DNA of 64,000 nucleotides from Acidimicrobiia bacterium. GTDB taxonomy: Bacteria > Actinomycetota > Acidimicrobiia > Spongiisociales > JAENVV01. Positions 2,721 to 15,834 of the stretch are shown one piece after another; within the stretch, counting starts at the first letter, position 1; the number at the start of each line of letters is the position of its first letter. Position numbers and translations under genes: made by a program. Where the stretch lies: positions 85,597-149,596 of the forward strand of contig JBFKPQ010000001.1 of the NCBI GenBank assembly GCA_041628225.1, in the 5' to 3' direction. Under the pieces are notes generated by a model that saw only the letters and a list, made by a program, of their open reading frames with translations, was not told the origin of the DNA and searched no databases.

Positions 2721-3521
2721 TCATGGGGCCAGGGCGCCGAGTCCGGTGACGAGCACGAGGCTGAGGCCGAGCACCACCTGTTGGGCACCGATGATGGCGG
2801 TACGGGGCACCGGCCTCCGCAAGAAGATCAGGTGAGCGGCGGCCAGACCGGCGACGGCCGTCATGCCCCACACGGAGACCAGGCTCGTCACCCAGGCGGC
2901 ACCTGCGAGCAGGACCGCGACGGCCTGCGCTCCGAGCCCCAATGCGATGGCTGCCGTCCCGCGTTTGGCGCGTTCGAGCTGTAGCCGCACGAAGGGGATC
3001 GTGGCGAGTGCTCGGGCCGCCGCAACGACCCACAGGCCGTAGGCGATCGACGCCGGTCGTCCACCGGCCAAGGCGATGGACGCGGCCACCGCCGCGATGC
3101 CGATGGTGCCCGCCAGTTCCGGGAGAAGCCGCCGGCTCCGGCTGCGTACGTCATACGAGAACGCCACCGCCACGAGCGGCGCGGCGAAGGCCAGCGGCAT
3201 CCAGAACGGGTGAGCGGACGCCATCGTTGCCACGCCGAGGGCGAAGGTCAGCGCGATGAGTTCCCCGGCCGCCACCCGCTCGGCGAGCGTCGTCCGGGGT
3301 AGCCGCCGACCTCGTCGACGATCGACGGCGGCCAGCTTGAGCGGCGTCCGGGCGACGAACGACAGGAGCGCGGCGATGCCGAGTGCCATGCCGGCGAGGC
3401 TCGGCGCCACGAGCAGGCCGAGCAAGACTGGTTCCAGCGTGAGACTCCAACCTCCATGCTCGGCAGGAATGGCCACGCGAGACCAGCGCAGATGATCCGC
3501 CGAGATCTCGAAATCGGTCAT
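2721..3521 (-). CDS. Integral membrane protein, about 8 predicted TM helices, unknown function
   Basis: C-terminal 266 aa of the long ORF 2721..4478 is strongly hydrophobic (MTDFEISADHLRW...GLGALAP). The N-terminal 319 aa of that ORF is Arg/Pro-rich wrong-frame text antisense to ogt, so the start was moved to the internal ATG (residue 320, ends 3521). Confidence 0.55.
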   Translation of the reverse strand: MTDFEISADHLRWSRVAIPAEHGGWSLTLEPVLLGLLVAPSLAGMALGIAALLSFVARTPLKLAAVDRRRGRRLPRTTLAERVAAGELIALTFALGVATMASAHPFWMPLAFAAPLVAVAFSYDVRSRSRRLLPELAGTIGIAAVAASIALAGGRPASIAYGLWVVAAARALATIPFVRLQLERAKRGTAAIALGLGAQAVAVLLAGAAWVTSLVSVWGMTAVAGLAAAHLIFLRRPVPRTAIIGAQQVVLGLSLVLVTGLGALAP

Positions 3522-3584
3522 GGGCCCGGTCAGGCTAGGACCGCCAGGTGAAGTTCTGGCTTCGGCGGCCGGTACGATTTCGGG

Positions 3585-4037
3585 GTGTTGGCCTACGACA
3601 GTCCGATCGGGACGCTCTACCTCACCGGGTCGGACGCCGGGTTGTCCGGCGTGTGGTTCGATCCGCCGGACGTGCCGGCACTCGAGGAGCGCAACGCCGT
3701 CAACGAGGCAGCCCGGCAGCTCGACGGGTACTTCGCCGGAACCAGGCATACGTTCGATCTGCCGCTCGCGCCGGCCGGAACCGAGTTCCAGCGGCGGGTG
3801 TGGACCGAACTCGAAGCGATACCGTACGGACACACGACGACATACGGTGACCTCGCCGCCCGGCTCGGTGACGTGAAGGCGACCCGGGCGGTGGGCCTTG
3901 CCAACGGCCGCAATCCGATCTCGATCATCGTGCCGTGCCACCGGGTGATCGGCGCCGACGGGTCCCTCACCGGGTACGGCGGCGGCCTCGACCACAAGCG
4001 CTGGCTCCTCGTGCACGAGGGAGCTCTCCTCGCCTGA
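3585..4037 (+). CDS. ogt: Methylated-DNA--protein-cysteine methyltransferase (O6-alkylguanine-DNA alkyltransferase)
   Basis: 150 aa with the active-site motif IVPCHRVIGADGSLTGYGGGL and helix-turn-helix region YGDLAARLG. GTG start at 3585. Confidence 0.9.
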   Translation: MLAYDSPIGTLYLTGSDAGLSGVWFDPPDVPALEERNAVNEAARQLDGYFAGTRHTFDLPLAPAGTEFQRRVWTELEAIPYGHTTTYGDLAARLGDVKATRAVGLANGRNPISIIVPCHRVIGADGSLTGYGGGLDHKRWLLVHEGALLA

Positions 4038-4070
4038 CACGCCGGTCCATCGAGCCGGTACGATCGTCCG

Positions 4071-4604
4071 GTGCGAACGCCCCGTAGCTCGATCCGGCTC
4101 CTCACCTATGTCGGGGTGGCAGGCCTGTCGTTCCAGGTGGCCCACTTCGGTGAGCACCTCGCCCAGTTCGCCTACTGGGTGGTCCATCCGACCTCGACGC
4201 CCTGGCTGTCGCCCTGGGCGGCCGCCTCGCGCGACGCGCTGTCGGCCGACCCGGCCATCGGGGTCGAGCTGCTTCACCTCCTGGGGAATGGGATCTTCCT
4301 GGGCGGGCTGCTGGCCCTGATGGCGGCGACGCGGCCAAGGGGCAATCCGATGCTGCGCATCGCCACCGTGCTGCAGGTCGTCCACGTCGCGGAGCACATC
4401 GCCCTGACGGTCACCCGAATGTTCTCGGGGTCGGCCATCGGGATCTCGACCGCGTTCGGCCTCCTGGAGGGCGGTCAACTCTCGTCATACCGCGTGTTGT
4501 GGCATTTCGTCGTCAACCTCATCGTGACCATCTATGCCGTCCGCGGACTCACTGGCGCGGTGCGCCGTGGGTTGGTCGGCGACCTCGTCACCGCCTCGAG
4601 GTGA
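4071..4604 (+). CDS. Hypothetical membrane protein
   Basis: 177-aa ORF with several hydrophobic segments (LLTYVGVAGLSF, GIFLGGLLALMAA, FVVNLIVTIYAV). Codon usage is consistent with neighbours. No recognisable motif. Confidence 0.5.
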   Translation: MRTPRSSIRLLTYVGVAGLSFQVAHFGEHLAQFAYWVVHPTSTPWLSPWAAASRDALSADPAIGVELLHLLGNGIFLGGLLALMAATRPRGNPMLRIATVLQVVHVAEHIALTVTRMFSGSAIGISTAFGLLEGGQLSSYRVLWHFVVNLIVTIYAVRGLTGAVRRGLVGDLVTASR

Positions 4605-4714: not shown

Positions 4715-5866
4715 ATGAAGCACTTCAAATTCATCCGGATCCTCGCATCGCTCACAGCGATGATGATGATCCTGGCCGCTTGCGGCGGTGATACGTCCGA
4801 AGGGACGACGGCCACGACGGCCGCGGAAACGCCGTCGGACGACCGCGGCAGCATCTGGGTGCTGCTACCGGACTCGGCGTCGTCAGCTCGCTGGGAGACC
4901 GATGACCGTCGGTTCTTCAAGGCCGCTTTCGAAGCAGCGGGACTCACCGAGGGCGCATCCGACGGTTTCACGATCGTCAACGCCGAAGGTGACACCAACA
5001 CCCAGCAGGCTCAGGCCGAGCAGGCCATCAACGAGGGTGCCAGCGTCATTCTCATCGTGAACCTCGATTCCGCGTCGGCGGCCACGATCATCGACCAGGC
5101 CCGCGCGGCCGACGTCAAGGTGGTCGACTACGACCGTCTCACGATCGAGGGTCCCGGTGCCGACGTCTACGTGTCGTTCGACAATGTGCGAGTGGGCGCG
5201 ACGATGGCCGAGGTGCTCGAGCCGGCCATCGACGGTCTCGGCATCGACAACCCGCAAGTCGTCCTGCTCAACGGTGGACCGACCGACAACAACGCCACGC
5301 TGTTCCGCGAGGGATACGGCTCGGTGGCCGATGCCCGCGCCGCAGCCGGCGACTGGACCATTGCCGCCGAGCAGGCCGTCCCGGACTGGGACAACCAGCA
5401 GGCTCTGACGATCTTCGAGTCGATCCTGGCCGATCTGGACCAGAACGTCGACGCCGTCTTCGCGGCGAATGACGGCCTGGCGGGTGCTGTGGCTGCTGCC
5501 CTCCAGACGGCTGGTCTGGATCCTGTGCCGCTCTCCGGTCAGGACGCTACGGCAGCCGGCATTCAGAACATCTTGCTCGGTTGGCAGACGATGACCGTCT
5601 ACAAGCCGATCAAGGCCGAGGCCGAGGCTGCGGCGGCTGCCGCTCTGGCCCTGCAAGCCGGAGAGGACGTCACGGCCCTGACGGGTGACTTCGAGGTCAC
5701 CACGATCAACAACGGGACGAACGACCTTCCGTTCATCGCACTGACCCCGATCGCCGTTACGGCCGACAACGTGGCCGAGACCGTGATCGCCGACGGGTTC
5801 CGGACCGTCGAGGAGATCTGCACGGGCGAGGTCGAGTCCACCGACTTCTGCACGTCGCAAGGCTGA
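4715..5866 (+). CDS. D-xylose-type sugar ABC transporter substrate-binding lipoprotein (XylF-like, periplasmic binding protein type 1)
   Basis: Lipobox ILAAC after the signal peptide and an AAAGGAG RBS 6 nt upstream. Clear collinear similarity to E. coli XylF blocks: YDRL..YVSFDNVRVG, NGGPTDNNATLFREGY, SGQDATAAGIQNILLGWQTMTVYKP, NNGTNDLPFIALTPIAV..DGF. Confidence 0.85.
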   Translation: MKHFKFIRILASLTAMMMILAACGGDTSEGTTATTAAETPSDDRGSIWVLLPDSASSARWETDDRRFFKAAFEAAGLTEGASDGFTIVNAEGDTNTQQAQAEQAINEGASVILIVNLDSASAATIIDQARAADVKVVDYDRLTIEGPGADVYVSFDNVRVGATMAEVLEPAIDGLGIDNPQVVLLNGGPTDNNATLFREGYGSVADARAAAGDWTIAAEQAVPDWDNQQALTIFESILADLDQNVDAVFAANDGLAGAVAAALQTAGLDPVPLSGQDATAAGIQNILLGWQTMTVYKPIKAEAEAAAAAALALQAGEDVTALTGDFEVTTINNGTNDLPFIALTPIAVTADNVAETVIADGFRTVEEICTGEVESTDFCTSQG

Positions 5867-12165: not shown

Positions 12166-12204
12166 CCCGAATCTGTCGGCGCCGGGCGGTATCGTGCCAG
12201 CACG

Positions 12205-13776
12205 ATGACCGACGAAGCTGCTGCCGAAGACACCCGAGGCACGACCACCTCGGCGTTCGGGGTGGGCAAGCGGGAGAACCACGATGCTTCGGCGTTCTAC
12301 GCCCGGTTCACCGCTCCCGAGGTGTCGGACGACGACACGCTGGGCCCACGTCCGAGCGAGCTGGAGCTGCCCGATCCGCCGTGCATCGTCGGCGACGCCC
12401 GCAACATGGCGGCGGTGCCCGACGGTTCGGTGGCGTTGGTCGTGACGTCACCGCCGTACTTCGTGGGAAAAGAGTACGAGCAGGCCGTGATCGGCACGGG
12501 TGAGGTCGCCCGACCCGAGGTGCCGCGGTCGTACGTCGAGTATCTCGAGATGCTGCGCGACGTCTTCGCCGAGTGCAAACGGACGCTCGAGCCGGGCGGA
12601 CGGATCGCCGTCAACGTCGCCAACCTCGGCCGCAAGCCGTACCGGAGCCTGTCCGCCGATGTCATCCGCATCCTCCAAGACGACCTCGGACTGCTCCTGC
12701 GCGGCGAGATCATCTGGCAGAAGGCCGACGGAGCGTCCGGATCGGTGGCGTGGGGATCGTTCAACAAAGCCACCAACCCGGTGCTGCGCGACATCACCGA
12801 GCGGGTCATCGTGGCCTCGAAGGGTCGGTTCGATCGAGCTCGGTCACGCCAGCAGCGCATCAAGGACGAGTACCCCCACGAGAACACCATGCCGGTGGAC
12901 GAATTCATGGAGGCGACCCTCGACGTCTGGCGTATCGATGCGGAGAGCGCCCGTCGGGTCAAGCACCCGGCACCCTTTCCGGTGGAGCTGCCGCGCCGGC
13001 TCATCGAGCTGTACACGTTCGAAGACGACCTGGTTCTCGACCCGTTCCTCGGCTCCGGCACCACACTGGTCGCGGCGGTCCGGTCGGGACGGCGAGGCGT
13101 CGGTTACGACCTGGACCCGGACTACGCGGAGATCGCAGCGCATCGCTACCGGGCCGAGCAGAAGCGGCATCGGCGCCAGCGTCAGACCGAGAGCATCCAC
13201 CAGGAGCGCCTGGCCCTCATGCTGCCGCCAGAGTCGACGCCCGAAGAGCGTGCCGACCACTTCCAGCGTCGCGCCAGCAAGGAAGGGAAGAAGGCTCAGG
13301 ACCTCGCCAAGCAGGTCCTCGAAGAAGCCGGCTTTCAGATCGTCGACGAGGCCTACAAACTGCCGCGCTCGGGAGTTCACTTCAACTTCCGCGTCGTCGA
13401 CGCCAACGGCGATCGCGACTACCTCGTCGATGTATCCGGCGCCTTCACGACTGCCCGCCCCGGCCTGTTGCGCACGGACACCCTCTGGAAGACGCTGGGC
13501 CGCGCCCACGTGCTCAAGTCACTCGACGAAGAAGCCCGCCTGCTCATCATCACATCGAACCTCCCGCGGCCCGGGTCCGACGGTGACAAGGCGTTGCACG
13601 CGGTCGGGCCGGGCAGCGTGTGGGATGCCATCGAGATGTTCGATGCCGACGGCGTCAACCGCCTCGAGTCGTACGCCGAGGGCCACGTCGACCAACTCCC
13701 TGGATTCTGGACGGAAAGCGAACTCGAGAGCCGTCGCGACGAGCAGGCGTCCCGCTACTGGCACGACGAAGAATGA
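12205..13776 (+). CDS. Beta-class DNA methyltransferase (SPPY motif IV, N4-cytosine/N6-adenine type) with about 180-aa uncharacterised C-terminal domain
   Basis: Motif IV VVTSPPYFVGKEY precedes motif I LVLDPFLGSGTTLVAA (beta-class order). Catalytic region ends near residue 340. Residues about 345-523 (..GFQIVDEAYKLPRSGVHFNFRVVDANGDRDYLVDVSGAF..LLIITSNLPRPG..) have no motif I recognise. A 6-bp inverted repeat ATCGTG-ccag-CACGAT overlaps the ATG. Confidence 0.85.
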   Translation: MTDEAAAEDTRGTTTSAFGVGKRENHDASAFYARFTAPEVSDDDTLGPRPSELELPDPPCIVGDARNMAAVPDGSVALVVTSPPYFVGKEYEQAVIGTGEVARPEVPRSYVEYLEMLRDVFAECKRTLEPGGRIAVNVANLGRKPYRSLSADVIRILQDDLGLLLRGEIIWQKADGASGSVAWGSFNKATNPVLRDITERVIVASKGRFDRARSRQQRIKDEYPHENTMPVDEFMEATLDVWRIDAESARRVKHPAPFPVELPRRLIELYTFEDDLVLDPFLGSGTTLVAAVRSGRRGVGYDLDPDYAEIAAHRYRAEQKRHRRQRQTESIHQERLALMLPPESTPEERADHFQRRASKEGKKAQDLAKQVLEEAGFQIVDEAYKLPRSGVHFNFRVVDANGDRDYLVDVSGAFTTARPGLLRTDTLWKTLGRAHVLKSLDEEARLLIITSNLPRPGSDGDKALHAVGPGSVWDAIEMFDADGVNRLESYAEGHVDQLPGFWTESELESRRDEQASRYWHDEE

Positions 13777-14093
13777 ACGGCGTCGCTTACGCGGTCGTCC
13801 GGACTGACCCACCGGAGGTGTACCTCGCCGACGACGTCGACATCCTCCAGCGGTTGCTCGCACTCGAACTCGTCGCCAACACCGACCCGAGAACGCTGAG
13901 CTCCGACGGTGCCTCCGACCTACGGTCGGCCCTCCTCGACGAGCGCTGGGCCGACGCCGTCGTCACCTGGATGGATCTGGCCGATACGCCGGTCGATGTG
14001 TACACGTTCCTGCCGGTGTTCTCGCGCGACGAGCTGCCGTCGGAGTTGATCGGCGCCCAGTTGCAGTTCCGCCGGCTGTTTCGCGACGCCTGA
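13773..14093 (+). CDS. Hypothetical small acidic protein (106 aa, no Lys, net charge about -12)
   Basis: ATG overlaps the MTase stop (ATGA). Continuous ORF with coding-like composition. No recognisable motif. Confidence 0.5.
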   Translation: MNGVAYAVVRTDPPEVYLADDVDILQRLLALELVANTDPRTLSSDGASDLRSALLDERWADAVVTWMDLADTPVDVYTFLPVFSRDELPSELIGAQLQFRRLFRDA

Positions 14094-14095
14094 CC

Positions 14096-15133
14096 GTGCC
14101 GACGCTCCGCACCGAGATCACGGAGATCGTCACCGGTCTCGGCATGTTCGACTACCCCGACCTGGGCCACGCCCTCGAGGTTCGCCCACGCCACTTCGCC
14201 AACGTGCCCGACGACGCGTACGAACGATTGGCCGCCGCGTACCGGTCGGGCACGGATGCGGGCCTCATGGCCCACGCCTGGGAGAACGGCGTCCGGTTCG
14301 CTCGCTCGATGGAGGGCCTGCGCGGCCGACCTCCGTGGCTCGTCGAGTGGAAGGGAAGCCACAAGCCGCCCGGCTACGAGCAACTGCCCGCGGACCTGCG
14401 CGTCGACCACGTGTACCTGGTGTCGTGCAAGTACGGGTCGAACATCCTCACCAATTCCTCGCCGGCCAACCTGTTCGACCGTGCCCTCGGCGACCGGGCC
14501 GACGGCACCGGAGACTGGTTCGCCGATGTGGCGCCCGACGCCTACCAACAGCTGTACGACGCCTGCCGTCCGCTCGTCGAGATGCGATTGCCCGACCACG
14601 TCACCGACCTCGACCAGAGCGACCGGGATGTGCTGAAGGCCGCCATGCCACGACGTCTGCAAGGTGAGGCACTCGTGGCGTACCGCGGGTTCGCCGACGC
14701 GGTGGCGGCAGCTTCGTCGGACCGGTGGTCGGCCGCGCTGCCGAACAGCCGCGCCCGAGAGCAGATGGTGTGGCGCCTGCTCCGTCTCGAAGCCGCCCCG
14801 TACTTCGTGCTGGGCGAATCGGCCGACAGCCGAGCGTTGGCCTACCGGGTGTCGACACCGTGGGACCTACGGGCGACCTACCGGTTCCGGTCGTTCACCC
14901 AGTGGGGCGAGACCGACCGCGGCCAGCCGGTGGTGGGGTGGCGGGCCGTGTTCCAAGACTTGGGGTCGGGTATCGAACGCACCGTCGAGGGCCACGTCGA
15001 GGTGCGATGGAGTCACGGCAAGTTCGCTCGACCACCGGAGGCGAAGGTGTACCTCGATACGCCGCACCATCAAGTCCCCGGCTACGTTCCCCTCGTCCTC
15101 CCGCGTGGCGACAACCTGTTCGGTGGGTCATGA
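14096..15133 (+). CDS. Hypothetical protein (345 aa) with a possible PD-x(n)-SxK nuclease-like motif
   Basis: GTG start 2 nt after the previous stop, and its stop overlaps the next ATG. Contains LPADLRVDHVYLVSCKYG, reminiscent of PD-(D/E)xK variants with SxK. That assignment is inference only. Confidence 0.55.
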   Translation: MPTLRTEITEIVTGLGMFDYPDLGHALEVRPRHFANVPDDAYERLAAAYRSGTDAGLMAHAWENGVRFARSMEGLRGRPPWLVEWKGSHKPPGYEQLPADLRVDHVYLVSCKYGSNILTNSSPANLFDRALGDRADGTGDWFADVAPDAYQQLYDACRPLVEMRLPDHVTDLDQSDRDVLKAAMPRRLQGEALVAYRGFADAVAAASSDRWSAALPNSRAREQMVWRLLRLEAAPYFVLGESADSRALAYRVSTPWDLRATYRFRSFTQWGETDRGQPVVGWRAVFQDLGSGIERTVEGHVEVRWSHGKFARPPEAKVYLDTPHHQVPGYVPLVLPRGDNLFGGS

Positions 15134-15552
15134 AGCGCCCCGAACTGCGATTCGCCGGACCGGTGCTCGACGCGGCGCAGCCGCTCGAACTCGCCGCCTT
15201 CTATGAGCGGCTCCTCGGCTGGCCCATCGTCCGCTCGGAAGGCCCGCGAGCCGGGTACCCGCCCGAAGATGGCTGGGCGCTGCTTCGCTCGCCGGACGGC
15301 ACCCAGAAGATCGAGGTCCAATGGGAACCCGACTACCTACCGCCGACGTGGCCGTCAGAGGCGGGTCGGCCGTTGATGATGATGCACCTCGACTTCGGCG
15401 TTACCGACGTCGACGAGGGTGTGCGCTGGGCGGTCGAGTGCGGTGCCACCGTCGCCGGCCACCAGCCCCAAGTCGACGTTCGCGTCATGCTCGACCCCGA
15501 GGGCCACCCGTTCTGCCTGTTTCTCGACGGTGATCAGGCGCTCGCCGACTAG
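15130..15552 (+). CDS. VOC-family (glyoxalase/bleomycin-resistance fold) protein
   Basis: 140 aa with typical VOC beta-alpha-beta-beta-beta text (LAAFYERLLGW.., HLDFGVTDVDEGV, HPFCLF). ATG overlaps the previous stop (ATGA). Confidence 0.7.
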   Translation: MKRPELRFAGPVLDAAQPLELAAFYERLLGWPIVRSEGPRAGYPPEDGWALLRSPDGTQKIEVQWEPDYLPPTWPSEAGRPLMMMHLDFGVTDVDEGVRWAVECGATVAGHQPQVDVRVMLDPEGHPFCLFLDGDQALAD

Positions 15553-15834
15553 ACCGCCGCGTACCGGCGAGCGAACTCTCGCACCTGTTGGTTGAAGGCG
15601 GCCGGCCGCGTGACACTGCAGGCGTGACCTGTGTCTTCCACCGTGGCCACCTCCACGTCGGGGCGGGCGGCGAGCAGGTCGGCTTCCTCGTGAGTTCGTG
15701 GCGAAGGGCGAGGCGATTGAGTTCCAGTACCGCCTCGGGGTCGACCTCGTCGTATTCGCGGATCTCCATGTCTCGATTCCACCACGCGCTCGTCGGTGGC
15801 GGGCGGCTCGCGGCCGAACACCTGGCTCAGGACG
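15549..15834 (-). pseudogene. Decayed remnant of an alpha/beta-hydrolase-like gene (frame-disrupted)
   Basis: Minus-strand text in two frames: MEIREYDEVDPEAVLELNRLALRHEL in one frame, then ..ARPDVEVATVEDTGHACSVTRPAAFNQQVREFARRYAAV (typical hydrolase C-terminus with catalytic His) in another. No intact ORF of hydrolase length. Confidence 0.3.

Follow-up and report, generated by a model that had tools for sequence, protein, structure and literature searches.

A three-gene methyltransferase module of Acidimicrobiia as a probable Type II restriction–modification cassette with a candidate new endonuclease family

The described systems that come closest to the locus reported here fall into several groups. 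Type IIP restriction–modification (R-M) systems include those with endonucleases of the MspI/HinP1I type, whose active sites read D...N-x-K in MspI and D...Q-x-K in HinP1I. Known Type IIC/IIG fusions (MmeI, BpuSI, DrdV) combine an N-terminal nuclease, a gamma-class methyltransferase (MTase) and a specificity domain. Class-wide epigenetic MTases are exemplified by CcrM in Alphaproteobacteria and Dam in Gammaproteobacteria, and repair nucleases are associated with such enzymes in the pairs Dam with MutH and Dcm with Vsr. The locus in question lies in a 64,000-nucleotide stretch of DNA from an Acidimicrobiia bacterium (contig JBFKPQ010000001.1, positions 85,597 to 149,596; hereafter the window, with positions counted from its first letter), where an MTase gene is followed on the same strand by genes for an acidic protein of 106 residues and for a protein of 345 residues. 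On balance, we regard it as an Acidimicrobiia-specific Type II R-M cassette with a new candidate restriction endonuclease family and an accessory pair, a reading that we consider reasonably probable.

Like Type IIP systems with MspI/HinP1I-type endonucleases, the locus has an adjacent, co-oriented MTase and a partner of ~340 residues, and, in a manner that resembles MspI and HinP1I, the predicted model of this partner has D...[S/Q]-x-K on strands 2 and 3 rather than D...(D/E)-x-K. It differs from the Type IIC/IIG fusions in that a nuclease-fold domain follows a beta-class MTase, and in that a separate nuclease-like protein is encoded as well. With the class-wide orphan MTases CcrM and Dam it shares an MTase that spans a class and is kept without the nuclease in a marine clade; in contrast to these, the MTase is usually coupled to a nuclease-like gene, carries SPPY and not DPPY, and is found in variable genomic contexts. 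CcrM, too, is a beta-class MTase that carries an additional domain at its C-terminus (PMC6787082), as is the MTase described here.

Results

A conserved three-gene unit

The original prediction for this region was a translationally coupled four-gene cassette around an SPPY-type MTase, and its open reading frames (ORFs), their overlapping or 2-nucleotide (nt) junctions and the SPPY motif are all as it had described them. The features are listed below; each of the four genes is an ORF, and the lengths of the four products are reproduced by a second, independent gene prediction for this contig.

12205–13776, plus strand: MTase gene, 523 residues
12205–13194, plus strand: MTase catalytic region (residues 1–330), an N6/N4 amino-methyltransferase of the beta class; motif IV is TSPPYF (residues 81–86)
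13222–13776, plus strand: MTase C-terminal domain (residues 340–523), predicted PD-(D/E)XK fold of the restriction-endonuclease-like type, the site being non-canonical
13773–14093, plus strand: acidic protein gene, 106 residues
14096–15133, plus strand: gene of the 345-residue candidate restriction endonuclease, GTG start
15130–15552, plus strand: VOC / Glyoxalase_6 gene, 140 residues (Pfam PF18029, E 3.3e-22)

The MTase stop and the start of the acidic-protein gene overlap as ATGA (13773–13776), the acidic-protein gene is joined to the next gene by TGA-cc-GTG (14091–14098), and a second ATGA (15130–15133) is shared by the stop of the 345-residue gene and the start of the VOC gene. The GTG start is backed by a conserved N-terminus, MPALRTEITEIVTGL.

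Conservation was surveyed by tblastn of the window proteins against 83 genome loci and by a reciprocal scan with the C-terminal domain as query, which added 80 metagenome loci, 76 of them with enough downstream sequence to be used. The order MTase core, MTase C-terminal region, small protein and 345-residue protein recurs by tblastn in about 73 of the 83 genome loci, and all three genes are present in 53 of the 76 usable metagenome loci. Core and C-terminal region form a single ORF in 72 of 73 loci. Chance does not account for the tight junctions, as most of the gaps measure −4 to +3 nt in 73 loci of other species.

The conserved unit consists of these three genes, and the VOC gene is not a member of it. 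VOC, ppa and NUDIX genes, the neighbors in the window, are found alongside the module in none of the 160 related loci of the genome and metagenome surveys; no conserved fourth gene was found, any given neighbor being common to at most 19 of 80 loci; and the flanks differ even between close relatives. The VOC gene is therefore best understood as a local passenger. That it belongs with the other three to an atypical four-gene defense cassette is exceedingly improbable: the ATGA overlap at 15130 does couple it to the 345-residue gene, but this overlap is seen in the present genome and three identical contigs, and elsewhere the downstream neighbors are unrelated and often convergent. What stands of the earlier proposal is thus a coupled and conserved three-gene MTase module, from which the VOC gene has to be removed. 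A check set in advance, whether the 106- and 345-residue proteins are independent housekeeping proteins, gave the opposite result, as the genes of both are kept with the MTase family.

An SPPY-type methyltransferase

Residues 76–312 of the MTase match Pfam N6_N4_Mtase (PF01555, E 7.6e-40) and residues 9–329 match the full-length PADLOC MTase_II model PDLC03350 (E 2.7e-83); among solved structures, the beta-class enzyme TTHA0409 (2zie, E 6.6e-34) is its closest relative. Core identity is 58–88% over the 160 related loci, and TSPPYF is kept in at least 95% of 120 homologues. Motif IV therefore has the SPP(Y/F) form of N4-cytosine beta-class enzymes; it reads SPPY in the N4-cytosine enzyme N4CMT and DPPY in the adenine enzyme CcrM (PMC10406627). 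Judged from its sequence, the MTase most likely forms N4-methylcytosine (m4C), as the original prediction had reasonably proposed. Relatives of the MTase in plasmid and phage collections are only 32–35% identical and are uninformative on its specificity.

A candidate endonuclease of 345 residues

The 345-residue protein belongs to a compact family. Its matches in the database number more than 3,400, the best 120 all being 55–75% identical; an exhaustive profile search of 50%-identity clusters returned 636 clusters at E ≤ 0.001, and a relative is encoded by at least 497 species genomes, the best 80 of which are mostly metagenome-assembled genomes (MAGs) of Acidimicrobiia or other Actinomycetota, with a few under another phylum label or none. 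No usable match to Pfam, NCBIfam, PADLOC or PDB sequences was found, profile searches and per-member scans included; the PADLOC REase_II model matches over 23 residues only (E 0.078), and plasmid and phage collections yielded no homologue.

An indication of a possible function comes from the predicted model, in which E10 sits on helix 1 and E84 on strand 1, followed by D100 where strand 2 starts and by S110-C-K112 within strand 3. E10, D100 and S110-x-K112 are invariant in the family, and E10, D100, S110, C111 and K112 are retained where identity to the window protein is only 27–41%; in one distant member the S-x-K position is taken by Q-T-K. In the model, this layout would be that of a PD-(D/E)XK site with serine in place of the second acid. 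The best structural neighbor of the model is R.HinP1I; a Foldseek comparison with the PDB gave no significant match, and neither phmmer nor hmmsearch against PDB sequences (1ynm included) detected homology to the MspI/HinP1I family. The beta-rich C-terminal domain (residues 236–332) holds the invariant GH.E.RWSHG and PE.K, with the most invariant residues of the entire protein, and is likely to be the part that recognizes DNA. On the strength of its predicted fold, the protein would be a nuclease.

Minimal, reduced and solo forms

The simplest form of the module is found at three loci, in which a short MTase of 314–323 residues precedes a homologue of 333–350 residues, and both the C-terminal domain and the acidic gene are lacking:

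L087, 6001–8023: minimal pair, MTase directly upstream of a 345-residue homologue
L088, 6049–8053: minimal pair, MTase directly upstream of a 345-residue homologue
L089, 6027–8002: minimal pair, MTase directly upstream of a 345-residue homologue

With the second gene 2–50 nt downstream of the MTase, this is the ordinary two-gene layout of Type II systems, and the L089 pair lies near genes for a serine recombinase (3025–4530) and an IS66 transposase (12979–14322). The homologues are 27–41% identical to the window protein, whereas the MTases are 61–65% identical to the core of the window MTase. The same tendency appears at short range, where pairwise identity is 0.865 for the 345-residue protein compared with 0.946 for the MTase, the former then reaching a plateau near 0.56. 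A restriction enzyme that outpaces its methylase in divergence is the usual pattern.

Another form is found in 22 marine loci (among L125–L168, for example L146, 3011–4851), some of them on TARA contigs. In these, the MTase, C-terminal domain included, and the acidic gene that overlaps it are present without a 345-residue gene, a convergent membrane-protein gene coming next instead; their GC content is 48–56%, with one outlier at 67%. The 345-residue partner thus appears to be dispensable, and these loci resemble orphan MTases left behind after the loss of a restriction gene. Finally, an intact 345-residue gene with all conserved residues and no MTase within 5 kb upstream occurs at four loci (L047, L063, L065 and L078; gene at 5001 to ~6010). 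Each of these solo genes has its own upstream region.

The distribution of the module bears on an alternative that we judge unlikely, namely methyl-directed housekeeping of DNA in the manner of CcrM and Dam, with a class-wide epigenetic MTase and a 345-residue nuclease that reads methylation for repair or replication-linked processing. Several observations are in its favor: the 345-residue family is carried by no fewer than 497 species genomes of one class; identity of the MTase core is nowhere below 58%, suggesting a single conserved specificity; MTase, C-terminal domain and acidic protein are kept without the nuclease in the low-GC marine genomes; Vsr and NucS are among the fold neighbors of the C-terminal domain; no plasmid or phage copies were found; the composition of the window shows no anomaly; and class-wide methylated motifs have been reported for Acidimicrobiia (PMC8919816). 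However, the genomic context varies between close relatives, unlike that of typical housekeeping loci, and an entire clade has lost the nuclease, whose divergence also outruns that of the MTase. Moreover, the best structural neighbor of the 345-residue protein is a restriction enzyme and not MutH or Vsr, and the minimal form looks like an ordinary pair of MTase and restriction genes, in one case beside mobility genes.

Accessory pair: C-terminal domain and acidic protein

By fold prediction and comparison, the MTase's C-terminal domain has a restriction-endonuclease-like PD-(D/E)XK fold, for which no usable Pfam, NCBIfam, PADLOC or PDB-sequence match was found. Its site reads Q/H ... D409-V-S411 ... 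K429. Since the canonical aspartate of strand 2 is histidine or glutamine and the canonical lysine is serine (D-V-S on strand 3), the activity of the domain is doubtful. XisH (2okf) is the top fold neighbor, and Vsr and NucS also occur among the neighbors. A profile–profile comparison between the domain and the 345-residue family revealed no homology; the domain is therefore not a duplicate of the partner protein.

The presence of two different predicted PD-(D/E)XK-fold units in one operon recalls the heterodimeric Type IIS/IIT enzymes BspD6I and BbvCI, or a Type IIC fusion joined by a partner subunit, and would be expected of a composite nuclease to which the C-terminal domain and the 345-residue protein each contribute one catalytic site, with the acidic protein as a subunit or an inhibitor. 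Such an arrangement is nevertheless improbable. Unlike in BspD6I and BbvCI, each unit occurs alone in some lineages: MTases with the 345-residue partner and no C-terminal domain exist, as do C-terminal domains with no 345-residue partner, so that they do not depend on each other. In addition, the C-terminal domain has a non-canonical site, with Q/H for aspartate and serine for lysine, and the two profiles show no mutual homology.

Over the acidic protein family, the median pI is 4.46 and net charge ranges from −14 to −4 (median −9). Searches of the 106-residue protein against Pfam (maximum E value 10), NCBIfam, PADLOC and the PDB gave no match, and no helix–turn–helix (HTH) was detected. Its gene lies between those of the MTase and the 345-residue protein in about 73 of the 83 genome loci, and is present in 75 of the 76 usable metagenome loci identified through the C-terminal domain, including 22 without the 345-residue gene. 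It occurs exclusively together with the C-terminal domain, being missing where the MTase has none; three genome loci have the domain and the 345-residue gene without it.

These features invite comparison with toxin–antitoxin or immunity pairs, in which the acidic protein, acting for instance as a mimic of DNA, would neutralize the C-terminal domain or the 345-residue nuclease and so stabilize the cassette. A small, strongly acidic protein with neither an HTH nor a family match, present only where the C-terminal domain is present, would suit this role, as would the top fold neighbor of that domain, given that XisH is encoded with a partner of ~110 residues, XisI. We consider the proposal as improbable as a composite nuclease: no homology was found for the small protein, three loci carry the C-terminal domain and the 345-residue gene without the small gene, and the domain lacks canonical catalytic residues. 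The similarity to the XisH–XisI pair, which acts in fdxN element excision in cyanobacteria, is confined to the fold of 2okf, in that the domain is here fused to an MTase and neither it nor the small protein has a Pfam XisH or XisI match.

A possible CGCG target

Single-molecule real-time (SMRT) metagenomics has shown CGCG and BAAAA to be methylated in all marine Acidimicrobiia MAGs examined and not in the class Actinobacteria; the CGCG mark was reported as m4C, and MTases were verified for BAAAA (N6-methyladenine, m6A), none being reported for CGCG in Acidimicrobiia (PMC8919816). This suggests the class-wide SPPY enzyme as a natural candidate for the CGCG m4C mark. Across the window and loci L004–L169, CTAG is the only 4-nt palindrome more depleted than CGCG, whose observed-to-expected ratio is 0.80 in the window, 0.72–0.74 in loci with the 345-residue gene and 0.87 in loci without it; this depletion is only a hint, GC content and lineage being confounding factors.

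A related proposal combines this target with a role in chromosome maintenance: MTase, C-terminal domain and acidic protein would form a self-sufficient, class-wide epigenetic unit behind CGCG m4C, and the 345-residue protein would be a maintenance nuclease that reads methylation and may, for example, provide strand discrimination in the MutS/MutL-independent mismatch repair of Actinobacteria. We consider this quite unlikely, more so than the general maintenance alternative above.

Identity of the MTase with the verified BAAAA (m6A) enzymes was considered separately and rejected by inference, because these enzymes, with top matches of 25–27% to m6A enzymes and 32% mutual identity (PMC8919816), are a poor fit to the tightly conserved SPPY family.

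Surroundings of the module

In the window, the region is flanked by genes for the inorganic pyrophosphatase ppa (E 5.6e-57) and a NUDIX hydrolase (E 7.7e-21); these Pfam matches bear out the flanks, and the match given above the VOC identity of the fourth product, as originally assigned. A signature of a GC island was not found, GC content being 0.66–0.70 inside the region compared with 0.65–0.69 in the flanks, and a scan for promoters and terminators returned nothing above shuffled background. The 'decayed gene remnant' placed at 15553–15834 could not be substantiated, as no Pfam match was obtained there at a maximum E value of 10. Two short ORF fragments on the minus strand (15549–15821 and 15485–15769) are present in the 282 bp that separate the stop codons of the VOC and NUDIX genes, and resemble, by eye, a hydrolase C-terminus and an acetyltransferase N-terminus.

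Elsewhere, a convergent ORF of 206 residues overlaps the 3′ end of the 345-residue gene in 15 of 80 loci (L045, 6027–6647, and 14 others). Its N-terminus, LYGLDIETD, resembles by eye the motif of DEDD 3′–5′ exonucleases, and it is a subclade-specific neighbor. In two genomes, genes of a defense or toxin–antitoxin kind lie a few kb upstream of the module, namely an AbiEi_4-like gene in L002 (3975–4952) and a small ORF with a PIN-domain gene in L003 (4261–4955).

Discussion

The module places an MTase gene next to a separate candidate endonuclease gene, an arrangement expected of Type II R-M systems, the second of these assignments being made from a predicted fold. Several lines of evidence lead us to prefer this interpretation, to which we would give somewhat better than even weight. 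First, the linkage holds at every evolutionary distance sampled. Second, the invariant E10, D100 and S110-x-K112 are placed on helix 1, strand 2 and strand 3 of the predicted model. Third, the 345-residue partner diverges faster than the MTase and is dispensable. Fourth, neighborhoods vary among close relatives, and one minimal pair lies beside mobility genes. The SPPY motif, which N4CMT also has, and the CGCG methylation of the class count in its favor as well, the depletion of CGCG being no more than a hint.

In this proposed Type II system, the beta-class MTase would mark a short target on host DNA, most likely as N4-methylcytosine, and the 345-residue protein would act as its cognate endonuclease, cutting the same target when unmethylated; it would be a divergent member of the PD-(D/E)XK enzymes, with D...S-x-K at its site and a structure of the MspI/HinP1I type. 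These two proteins would represent the ancestral core. In the main clade, to which the window belongs, the MTase would then have gained its C-terminal PD-(D/E)XK-fold domain, without the canonical aspartate and lysine. The accessory pair of C-terminal domain and acidic protein probably regulates or assists the MTase rather than cutting DNA, and may do so by binding DNA, by forming a complex or by controlling when restriction takes place. The VOC gene would be a passenger in this genome.

Several catalogued systems were considered and set aside. Type III R-M was rejected, since no helicase or ATPase domain is present in the four products. R-M under the control of a C protein was rejected for want of an HTH, or of any Pfam match at a maximum E value of 10, in the 106-residue protein. 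BREX, DISARM, Dnd–Ssp and other catalogued defense systems were rejected because PADLOC matched only MTase_II and orphan-MTase models, with no system assigned to the other three products. The PADLOC and Pfam results thus agree with the original prediction in finding no Type III, BREX, DISARM or Dnd architecture. Of the atypical R-M or defense module that it proposed, a conserved MTase module is retained; this is not an exotic four-gene system, and its core is recognizable as Type II R-M.

To our knowledge, the combination of a beta-class MTase, a C-terminal nuclease-fold domain and an acidic protein matches no R-M architecture described. If the proposed reading is true, the 345-residue protein would be a new, uncatalogued family of restriction endonucleases that extends across hundreds of uncultured Acidimicrobiia species, and the module would offer a candidate for the gene behind the m4C methylation that is reported class-wide. 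The fusion of an MTase to a nuclease fold may bring to light a new means by which an MTase is controlled or extended. A new specificity, for four bases or otherwise, would make a useful enzyme, and knowledge of the barrier that such a system presents would aid the transformation of Acidimicrobiia.

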